Assembly: GCF_024298765.1 (NCBI RefSeq)
Contig: NZ_CP101210.1
DNA from: Escherichia coli
Lineage (GTDB): Bacteria > Pseudomonadota > Gammaproteobacteria > Enterobacterales > Enterobacteriaceae
DNA: 64,000 nt
Strand: one strand, 5' to 3'
A program made the translations under genes and the position numbers. Within the stretch, counting starts at the first letter, position 1, and each line of letters starts with the position of its first letter. Positions 1-25,039 of this stretch are shown here, one piece after another. The notes beneath the pieces were generated by a model. That model worked only from the letters and a program-made list of their open reading frames with translations. It was not told the DNA's origin and did no database searches.

Positions 1-451
1 CGCCCATGATCACCAGACGACGAATATACTGTTTACATTCCGGGCATTGTGAAAGTAACAGCGCAATATTGGTTAACGGGCCAATGGCTACCAGCGTAAC
101 AGGCTCTGGTGCACGCAGCAGGGCATCACGAATCGCCAGAAACGCTGGTATCTCGAGTGGCTTTCGGTTGTGCTCAACAAAGTCGTAGCCAGCCATTCCC
201 GATTCACCGTGCACAGATGCCGCATCACGCGGTGCGCGTACCAGCGGTACGGCTGCGCCCTGGGCAAGCGGAATCTCCGCATTCCAGAAATGCAGCAGTT
301 GCAGGGCGTTGCGGGTCGTTTTCTCAACCGAGACATTACCCGCGACGGTGGTCATCAGTTGCAGGTCGAGTTCGGGGGCAAAAATCGCGGCGGCAATGGC
401 GACGGCATCGTCAATGCCGGGGTCAGTATCGAGGAAGATAGGTAAACGCAT
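1..451 (-). CDS. rihC: ribonucleoside hydrolase RihC, 5' portion; gene runs off the window start
   Basis: Minus-strand translation from an ATG near 449-451 reads [22 protein letters not shown]..., the nucleoside hydrolase N-terminus with DTDPGIDD motif; no stop before position 1. Not in the ORF track because it is truncated. Confidence 0.8.
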
Positions 452-461
452 GTTTTCTCCA

Positions 462-535
462 TAAAAAATGCCGGTAACAAGACCGGCATTTTTTATGGAG
501 AAAACATGCCGGTAACAAGACCGGCATTTTCGCAT
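462..535. terminator. pair of GC hairpins (gccggt-aacaag-accggc, present twice) inside a larger inverted repeat, downstream of ispH
   Basis: Two copies of atgccggtaacaagaccggcatttt seen directly in the rihC-ispH intergenic sequence, each followed by a T-run. Confidence 0.4.
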
Positions 536-554
536 AACTTAGGCTGCTAATGAC

Positions 555-6982: not shown

Positions 6983-7025
6983 TATCCATCTGCAGGCCAA
7001 AATTCGGCCTGCAAAGTACAAATGT

Positions 7026-7931
7026 TTATTTTGAAGCTGGAGTAAACAGCGCAGAATAGTCTGTATTGCAGATACGCTGTACTGCAGGGTGCTGAATCAT
7101 CCTTTCGGCAAAAATCGCGTGGTACTCTTCCATCACGTTCTCAACACGGCCTATCTCCACAACCGAGTCATCGTTATAGAAATCATTAGCGTAAAGCGAA
7201 GGTGCAACGAAAATAGCGTTATGCGTCGCCCCAAAGGCTTTCATCAACGCAGCATCATCAAACTCACCCAAAATTTCGACGTTCAAGCCCTGGGAGTTAA
7301 ACCAGTTTAATAGCTTACGCCCCAACATTGAGCGACGCCCCGGAATAAGTAAACGACGCTCTTCAAGACAGGCAGGAAACGGCTTTTCTGGTAGTGGGTT
7401 AGTGCACCAGAAACTGACACCACATTCGCCAATTTTCATGGAAAACAGCCCTTCCTGCTGAGTGGAATCGATCGGACAGTCAGAGATGATCATATCCAGT
7501 TTATGCTGACTCAACTGCTCTAAAAGCATCTCGTGCGTCGATTCGAAACAGCGTAGATGGATCTGCTCGTCTTCCACAACTGCGGCATCCAGAACACTGC
7601 TGACCAGACGTTTGGAAAGTGCATCTGCCACACCAACATCAAACAATAAGTTGGATTCTTTGCGATAGTTCACGATATCCAGCATTTCCTGGCTTAAGGT
7701 GAACATTTTATCGGCATAGCGATAGACCAGCTCTCCCAGCTCGCTGGGCTCGAGGCCACGTCCCTTGCGCTTAAATAATTTGCCTTGCAGGCGCTCTTCC
7801 AGCGCCCGAATCTGTCCGGTAATGGTTTGTGGTGTTAAATAAAGCGCCTCCGCTGCGCCAACCACGGAACCTTCTTTATAGACATGCCAGAAGTAATACA
7901 AGTGGTTGTAATTGATATGAGACATGCTCAT
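7026..7931 (-). CDS. nhaR: LysR-family transcriptional activator NhaR
   Basis: ORF 7026..7949; known N-terminus [30 protein letters not shown] at an internal ATG; 301 aa. Confidence 0.93.
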
Positions 7932-9895: not shown

Positions 9896-9998
9896 GAGCA
9901 ACGGCGGGGAGTGATTCCCGCCACTTTTCAGGTGCTCGCATATCTTCAACGCACCCTGGTTTTACCCAGGCCTGCCCACGGGCAGGCTTTTGGGGAGG

Positions 9999-24982: not shown

Positions 24983-25016
24983 TCGAAAAAAAAGCCCGCA
25001 CTGTCAGGTGCGGGCT
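24983..25016 (-). terminator. thr operon attenuator terminator
   Basis: Minus strand agcccgcacctgacagtgcgggct followed by a run of eight T, between thrL and thrA. Confidence 0.8.
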
Positions 25017-25039
25017 TTTTTCTGTGTTTCCTGTACGCG

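Follow-up and report, generated by a model that had tools for sequence, protein, structure and literature searches.

A 38-nt insertion between ispH and rihC of Escherichia coli, probably generated by template switching at a terminator hairpin

The spacer between ispH and rihC in the Escherichia coli DNA analysed here (the window, a stretch of 64,000 nt of contig NZ_CP101210.1, assembly GCF_024298765.1) contains a strain-specific 38-nt insertion which, very probably, originated from one replication template switch at the terminator hairpin of ispH. As such it would constitute a clean example of template switching from a natural population, in which one replication error converted an ordinary terminator into a 28-bp perfect RNA/DNA hairpin.

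The repeat between ispH and rihC and its distribution

In this region of the window, every gene is encoded on the minus strand. The 5′ part of rihC (ribonucleoside hydrolase C; 1-451), delimited by its ORF translation, is truncated by the start of the window and begins with an ATG that is the reverse complement of 449-451; its Shine-Dalgarno sequence GGAG (457-460, minus strand), located from sequence and folds, lies 5 nt upstream of the AUG. The upstream gene, and the one whose terminator is affected, is ispH (4-hydroxy-3-methylbut-2-enyl diphosphate reductase; 555-1505, stop codon the reverse complement of 555-557), beyond which follow fkpB, lspA and ileS. Both gene names were confirmed from annotated homologous records, five of which have rihC annotated at the matching place.

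A repeat search identified a perfect inverted repeat at 448-509, with two arms of 28 nt each (448-475 and 482-509; 100% complementary) separated by the 6-nt spacer AACAAG (476-481). Its 28-bp stem has a predicted folding energy of -45.2 kcal/mol as sense RNA and -32.3 kcal/mol as DNA, and its left arm includes the rihC start codon and Shine-Dalgarno sequence. This palindrome is the longest among the close inverted repeats of the window and lies far beyond chance expectation. The runner-up among perfect ones, at 24988-25021 (AAAAAAGCCCGCAC / GTGCGGGCTTTTTT, 14-nt arms, 6-nt spacer), has the look of a terminator, being a symmetric hairpin with A and T tracts that is built like the ancestral ispH hairpin described below.

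The original prediction had described a hairpin occurring twice, in a string that corresponds exactly to 449-530, and an inverted pair overlapping the rihC translation start. Both observations hold, with palindrome arms longer than the 12-nt pair first noted; the range 455-554 given for the feature was loose, the structured part being 448-530. The two copies of the hairpin, GCCGGTAACAAGACCGGC, lie at 470-487 and 508-525, both read on the minus strand. The copy nearest rihC forms the tip of the long stem and is followed on the sense strand by AUUUUUU, like the ancestral ispH terminator, while the copy nearest ispH is followed on the sense strand by AUGUUUUCUCC and is terminator-like according to a consensus scan. 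Between the copies lies a 20-nt segment, ATTTTTTATGGAGAAAACAT (488-507), which is the exact reverse complement of 450-469, i.e. of the rihC leader with its Shine-Dalgarno sequence and start codon (20/20 positions, up to 22 counting GC). An exact 25-nt direct repeat, ATGCCGGTAACAAGACCGGCATTTT, is present at 468-492 and 506-530, and deletion of one 38-nt unit restores exactly the ancestral sequence. The repeat search also reported a period-38 direct repeat, the two 38-nt units of which share just 84% identity. The earlier interpretation as a local duplication of the terminator is therefore upheld in that the ispH terminator hairpin has been rearranged locally and in a strain-specific way, but it was not a simple duplication, given the 84% identity of the units and the reverse-complement segment between the hairpin copies. 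The label “bidirectional” is not needed for this terminator, since ispH and rihC share one strand.

Alignment with the genome of strain K-12 MG1655 showed an ispH-rihC spacer of 65 nt there, against 103 nt in the window, the K-12 spacer being otherwise identical. The 38 nt without counterpart in K-12 or in any close sibling are placed by alignment at 468-505, with equivalent placements up to 493-530 owing to the 25-nt repeat. The full 82-nt variant was detected in 4 of 5426 complete E. coli genome records, representing three strains, HNSQ2209, D97-1 (deposited twice) and CH4799, and all four full-coverage matches were 100% identical. The 44-nt ancestral part of the query was matched in 5086 of the 5426 genomes, and the ancestral sequence of 211 nt aligned colinearly in 5414 of 5425. 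The frequency of the variant allele is thus about 0.07%, and exactly these 38 nt are absent from K-12 and from about 99.8-99.9% of complete E. coli genomes, so that the outcome that would have spoken against strain specificity, namely the same sequence in K-12 and all strains, is not what the genomes contain. A junction-specific 25-mer had no match in metagenome contigs or in contigs of species-representative genomes, which added no further lineages within limited denominators (at least 80 ancestral metagenome contigs); the 31-mer spanning the junction of the variant is GGAGAAAACATGCCGGTAACAAGACCGGCAT.

The hairpin 22-mer is single-copy and in the same context in nearly all metagenome contigs among the matches listed (at least 80), and other Escherichia, namely E. 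albertii, E. whittamii and Escherichia sp. MOD1-EC7003, likewise have one copy of the hairpin, which in E. albertii and E. whittamii sits in a spacer of 65 nt, as in K-12. Judged from its occurrence in K-12, in the metagenome contigs and in other Escherichia, a single hairpin is therefore the ancestral state for the genus, and the 38 nt are a derived insertion. This distribution refutes the reading of the structure as a conserved terminator. The broader proposal that the structure is conserved and under selection, as a duplicated bidirectional terminator or attenuator kept to regulate rihC, draws on its location over the rihC ribosome-binding site and on the high stability of its RNA; with the structure absent from K-12, from about 99.9% of E. 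coli and from other Escherichia species, confined to branch tips and without a match to any Rfam family above threshold, the probability left to this proposal is close to nil.

Other kinds of variation were also noted at this locus. In the complete genome of strain 6EVA (NZ_CP138428.1; 220-1425 of the locus compared), an extra 1.2-kb gene annotated as ‘XAC2610-related protein’ lies between ispH and rihC, together with a terminator hairpin of another sequence (AAAAAAAAACCAGCAACGAGTGTGCTGGTTTTT) and a rihC gene whose 5′ end diverges; the ispH-rihC spacer can therefore host a gene-sized insertion as well. Some 558 genomes align at 90-95% identity to the ancestral 211 nt, e.g. strain E41-1 (150-260 of the locus compared), with several flanking SNPs, including a change of rihC codon 2 from CGC to CAT (Arg to His) and changes in the spacer part distal to ispH; neither the hairpin nor the Shine-Dalgarno sequence is affected.

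Probable origin by template switching, and independent recurrence

In the orientation of the window, the ancestral order is ...ACG CATGTTTTCTCCATAAAAAAT (GCCGGT AACAAG ACCGGC) ATTTTCGC... With X for CATGTTTTCTCCATAAAAAAT (the rihC leader and start codon in reverse complement) and H for the hairpin, the ancestor is X-H-ATTTTCGC and the variant X-H-X′-H-ATTTTCGC, in which X′ is the exact reverse complement of X and the orientation of the loop is kept in both copies of H. This duplication-inversion-duplication layout is a signature of a replication template switch. Further hallmarks of such events are present. As noted above, the added bases exactly match the reverse complement of sequence close by; a hairpin with a 6-bp GC stem (11 bp including the A/T tracts) pre-exists at the switch point in K-12, in siblings and in outgroups; the palindrome was lengthened and perfected from an 11-bp stem to a perfect stem of 28 bp; and one departure and one return, each with pairing (the hairpin stem, and ATGC within an 8/9 match), account for the product.

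In the proposed scenario, the nascent strand, having just copied the hairpin, would fold back on its own 6-bp GC stem or switch across the fork, whereupon about 20 nt of the rihC leader would be copied as the reverse complement, ATTTTTTATGGAGAAAACAT(GC). The strand would then re-anneal to its proper template just upstream of the hairpin (AAAACATGC against AAAAAATGC, 4 nt exact and 8/9 overall), and the hairpin would be copied a second time. The expected product is a duplication-inversion-duplication in which the ancestral 11-bp stem has become the 28-bp perfect palindrome with a second hairpin copy adjacent to it. When such a two-switch event was simulated on the ancestral sequence (copying through H, fold-back on the stem of H, self-copying to 448-452 and template return at 468-472), with ATGC as the return microhomology, the sequence of the window was obtained base for base.

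A cross-fork event on the other strand, with the first switch via GCAT/ATGC and the return via homology of AAAATGCCGGT, would give the same product, so that the sequence is compatible with both versions. On the K-12 map, the locus lies on the clockwise replichore with its genes co-directional with the fork. With this position, the fold-back version would have occurred on the lagging strand and the cross-fork version on the leading strand.

Other routes to the insertion were considered. Plain tandem duplication is ruled out by the 84% identity of the units, whose differences are exactly those of a reverse complement, and no allele of the type X-H-X-H was found among the 5426 complete E. coli genomes. 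One could also imagine a 38-nt tandem duplication of leader and hairpin followed by inversion of the segment between the hairpin copies. The period-38 direct repeat would be in keeping with such a sequence of events, and an inversion could in principle proceed through the hairpin arms, which lie as inverted repeats on either side of the middle segment; these arms, however, are at 6 bp very short for recombination, two rare events would be needed in each of four lineages, the perfect tandem-duplication intermediate occurs in 0 of 5426 genomes, and a single template switch already yields the exact product. We consider this two-step route barely credible. A mobile element of REP or MITE type, which would be expected in multiple dispersed copies with terminal inverted repeats and a target-site duplication, is ruled out as well: outside the carriers, each genome or contig has a single copy of the hairpin 22-mer, the insert consists entirely of local sequence, and the junction 25-mer occurs nowhere else in the collections searched.

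The carriers of the insertion are not close relatives of the genome studied here. Over 6 kb, the window differs from HNSQ2209, D97-1 and CH4799 by 186-188 mismatches, and these three differ among themselves by 28-47; the window is thus distinct from each of them, and the four carriers represent four haplotypes. Each has near-identical siblings devoid of the insertion. Between the window and its closest relatives, e.g. strain 104, there are 0 mismatches over 6 kb, and the sole difference is a gap of 38 columns. The same 38 columns are the sole gap between HNSQ2209 and KTa005 (3 mismatches in 12 kb), between D97-1 and CP66-6_Sichuan (0 mismatches over 6-12 kb) and between CH4799 and JE86-ST05 (3 mismatches over 6-12 kb). 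These sibling comparisons rule out common descent of the carriers. The variant allele is found at branch tips only, and the presence of one allele in unrelated backgrounds whose nearest relatives are without it is the pattern of a mutational hotspot. Since each of the four haplotypes has non-carrier siblings, the alignments indicate at least four independent gains of an identical 38-nt allele in unrelated E. coli lineages. Template switching would produce the same product repeatedly, as both the hairpin and the homology used for the return are permanently present at the locus.

A single event followed by spread through homologous recombination of a very short patch is the other way to obtain identical alleles. 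The sequence right around the insert is indeed identical in all carriers, the nearest distinguishing SNPs being at 377 and 584 between the window and the others, and at 242/245 and 621/756 among the three other carriers. A patch of no more than 207-510 nt would leave no trace, so that this identical tract, of about 207-510 nt between the SNPs, is uninformative on import. Such spread would, however, call for at least three separate imports of tiny patches at the exact site into unrelated backgrounds, which is less parsimonious, into recipients otherwise only 0-3 mismatches from their non-carrier siblings over 6-12 kb, and from donors that are scarce at an allele frequency of about 0.07%. A deterministic templated mechanism accounts for the identity of the alleles without any transfer, and we regard short-patch import as unlikely.

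The evidence for the insertion is drawn from genome assemblies, and palindromes can provoke template switching by polymerases in vitro, which brings up fold-back chimeric reads, or polishing errors at the hairpin, as a source of the variant. Against such an artefact, the same 38 nt were recovered in four strains that different laboratories had sequenced independently (two in China, one in Sweden, and the source of the window), while about 5400 other assemblies of the same hairpin are without them. Moreover, no other terminator in the 64-kb window has an extended palindrome, and in-vitro chimeras form a minority of reads that should lose to the consensus. An artefactual origin thus seems very improbable, and a template switch in the cell remains our preferred explanation.

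The same set of genomes differs at further intergenic sites. The fkpB-lspA spacer (window approx. 1974-2028) displays a length polymorphism of about 37 nt, with 87 nt in the window and 124 nt in K-12 and HNSQ2209, which have extra REP-like sequence (CGGCGTAAACGCCTTATC...CGGATAAGATGCGTCAGCAT) missing from the window, D97-1 and CH4799. The rpsT-nhaR interval (window 6984-7035) comprises about 52 nt, compared to a 4.4-kb segment with espX1 and fimbrial usher and subunit pseudogenes in D97-1, CH4799 and HNSQ2209, and to IS1A in K-12. Between mokC/hokC and dnaJ (window approx. 9907-9919), K-12, HNSQ2209 and CH4799 carry a copy of IS186/IS421, which the window and D97-1 do not have.

Predicted effect on rihC and stability of the allele

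Directly after ispH, the ancestral hairpin (AAAAUGCCGGU-CUUGUU-ACCGGCAUUUUUU in the sense RNA) has the classic form of an intrinsic terminator. As sense RNA, the ancestral spacer is predicted to adopt this single terminator-like hairpin (-23.7 kcal/mol), leaving the Shine-Dalgarno sequence GGAG and the AUG of rihC essentially free. For the variant, the RNA structure prediction suggested along with the original observation gave two hairpins and -56.8 kcal/mol, compared to -26.2 +/- 3.4 for shuffled sequences (z = -9.1). The second of these hairpins is the 28-bp perfect stem, which encloses both the Shine-Dalgarno sequence, lying in its 3′ arm, and the AUG. The ensemble cost of opening the region from Shine-Dalgarno to AUG rises from 4.4 kcal/mol in the ancestor to 17.8 kcal/mol in the variant, and that of the region from -20 to +13 from 16.1 to 31.5 kcal/mol. 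By established relationships between structure and translation, such increases imply that initiation drops by several orders of magnitude, so that in these models translation of rihC from read-through RNA is predicted to collapse and the gene is probably silenced.

A perfect stem of 28 bp may also be a substrate of RNase III. The ispH transcript of the variant would now meet two predicted terminator hairpins in tandem. On the sense strand, GCCGGU/ACCGGC is followed by AUUUUUU; the copy proximal to rihC retains the ancestral U6 tail, and the sequence following the copy proximal to ispH is GUUUUCUCC. The consensus scan, which absorbs the A/T tracts into the stem, flagged the ispH-proximal copy of the variant only and not the ancestral hairpin. 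We judge this omission to be a limitation of the scanner and not counterevidence, the putative terminator function being read from the sequence. A consensus scan for promoter-like sites found none in the spacer or in the 3′ part of ispH, a weak negative; rihC therefore probably depends on read-through, which two predicted terminators would lower further. In HNSQ2209, D97-1 and CH4799, rihC is annotated as intact, which is consistent with recent events. The gene is reportedly hardly expressed, with low basal expression; if so, the phenotypic effect of its silencing would be small. The practical biological effect, a predicted lack of the non-essential nucleoside hydrolase RihC, is probably small.

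No Rfam family was found at or above its gathering threshold: all 17 matches were sub-threshold, the best being mir-9449 (45.2 bits against 100, E = 4e-8, window 448-512). These matches are mostly to eukaryotic miRNA precursors and bacterial sRNAs, and we read them as reflecting hairpin shape only. E-values against hairpin-shaped families can appear significant for any long perfect stem. In the literature collection searched, no paper joined rihC, ispH and the terminator.

With its 25-nt direct repeats and its palindrome, the variant allele should be prone to precise loss, as far as its layout allows a prediction. In E. coli, comparable structures of the duplication-inversion-duplication type undergo precise elimination that depends on SbcCD and Rep (PMC13334657). 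Repeated gain followed by ready loss would explain both the rarity of the allele (about 0.07%) and its confinement to branch tips. It is possible to go further and to regard the spacer as a reversible toggle controlling expression of the nucleoside hydrolase, akin to phase variation by palindrome extension. Hairpin-primed template switching, with gain of 38 nt and occlusion of the ribosome-binding site, would turn rihC off, and a precise deletion between the 25-nt direct repeats, through slippage or provoked by SbcCD, would turn it on again. Two sequence prerequisites of phase variation are present, namely recurrent gain and a 25-nt direct repeat permitting precise loss. Such a toggle would differ from known phase variation in its use of palindrome extension instead of repeat-tract slippage or invertases; we consider it quite improbable as an account of this locus.

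Relation to known template-switch events

The mechanism invoked here is known already, and the ispH-rihC insertion is a new natural example of it, not a new kind of element. Its interest lies in the suggestion that intrinsic terminators can serve as hotspots for templated insertions, and that such insertions can, as predicted here, silence a downstream gene in one step by burial of its ribosome-binding site. It also implies that identical complex indels across lineages should not be read as evidence of shared descent or of recombination. With a junction detectable by PCR at a non-essential chromosomal locus, the site would be convenient for assaying both template switching and palindrome loss. 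Stalled replication (AZT, DNA-protein crosslinks) promotes template switching of the quasipalindrome type, and ExoI/ExoVII limit it.

Ripley-type template switching at hairpins and quasipalindromes, with its hotspots, has been described in E. coli (PMC7202029, PMC5941160), and its genetic dependence can be addressed by fluctuation- and amplicon-type assays (PMC7202029). The event proposed here resembles quasipalindrome-type mutation in its pre-existing hairpin, the reverse-complement copy of adjacent sequence, the longer perfect palindrome that results, hotspot recurrence, and two switches with microhomology. In classical cases, however, few bases are changed or added within the arms, whereas at ispH-rihC the copying apparently extended 20 nt past the stem, with a return upstream of the point of departure that duplicated the hairpin as well (net +38 nt). 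Furthermore, the classical cases concern a selected reporter, and the present one an intergenic terminator in natural isolates.

Perfect stems created by one template-switch event have been reported by Monttinen & Loytynoja 2022 (PMC8794818) under a four-switch-point model, and the likeness is close: in one event, a reverse-complement repeat is added beside an existing hairpin and a long perfect stem results, with loop sequence and orientation retained at ispH-rihC as expected for priming by a nascent-strand hairpin. Their examples come from inference across deep phylogenies of rRNA and microRNA genes, whereas ours is a recurrent within-species polymorphism in an mRNA leader and terminator. 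Small inverted triplications, or DUP-INV-DUP structures (Lei et al. 2026, PMC13334657), have the same layout and short junction microhomology. By analogy with these, studied on E. coli plasmids with SbcCD/Rep dependence, precise elimination via the flanking direct repeats and the hairpin may be expected for the ispH-rihC allele, which is bacterial and chromosomal and about 10x smaller (25/13-20/25 nt versus approx. 148/160/148 bp). The ancestral ispH hairpin, finally, is like any intrinsic (Rho-independent) terminator with flanking A and U tracts; the variant departs from the ordinary form in having two copies, the rihC-proximal one of which tips a 28-bp stem reaching over the ribosome-binding site of the next gene.
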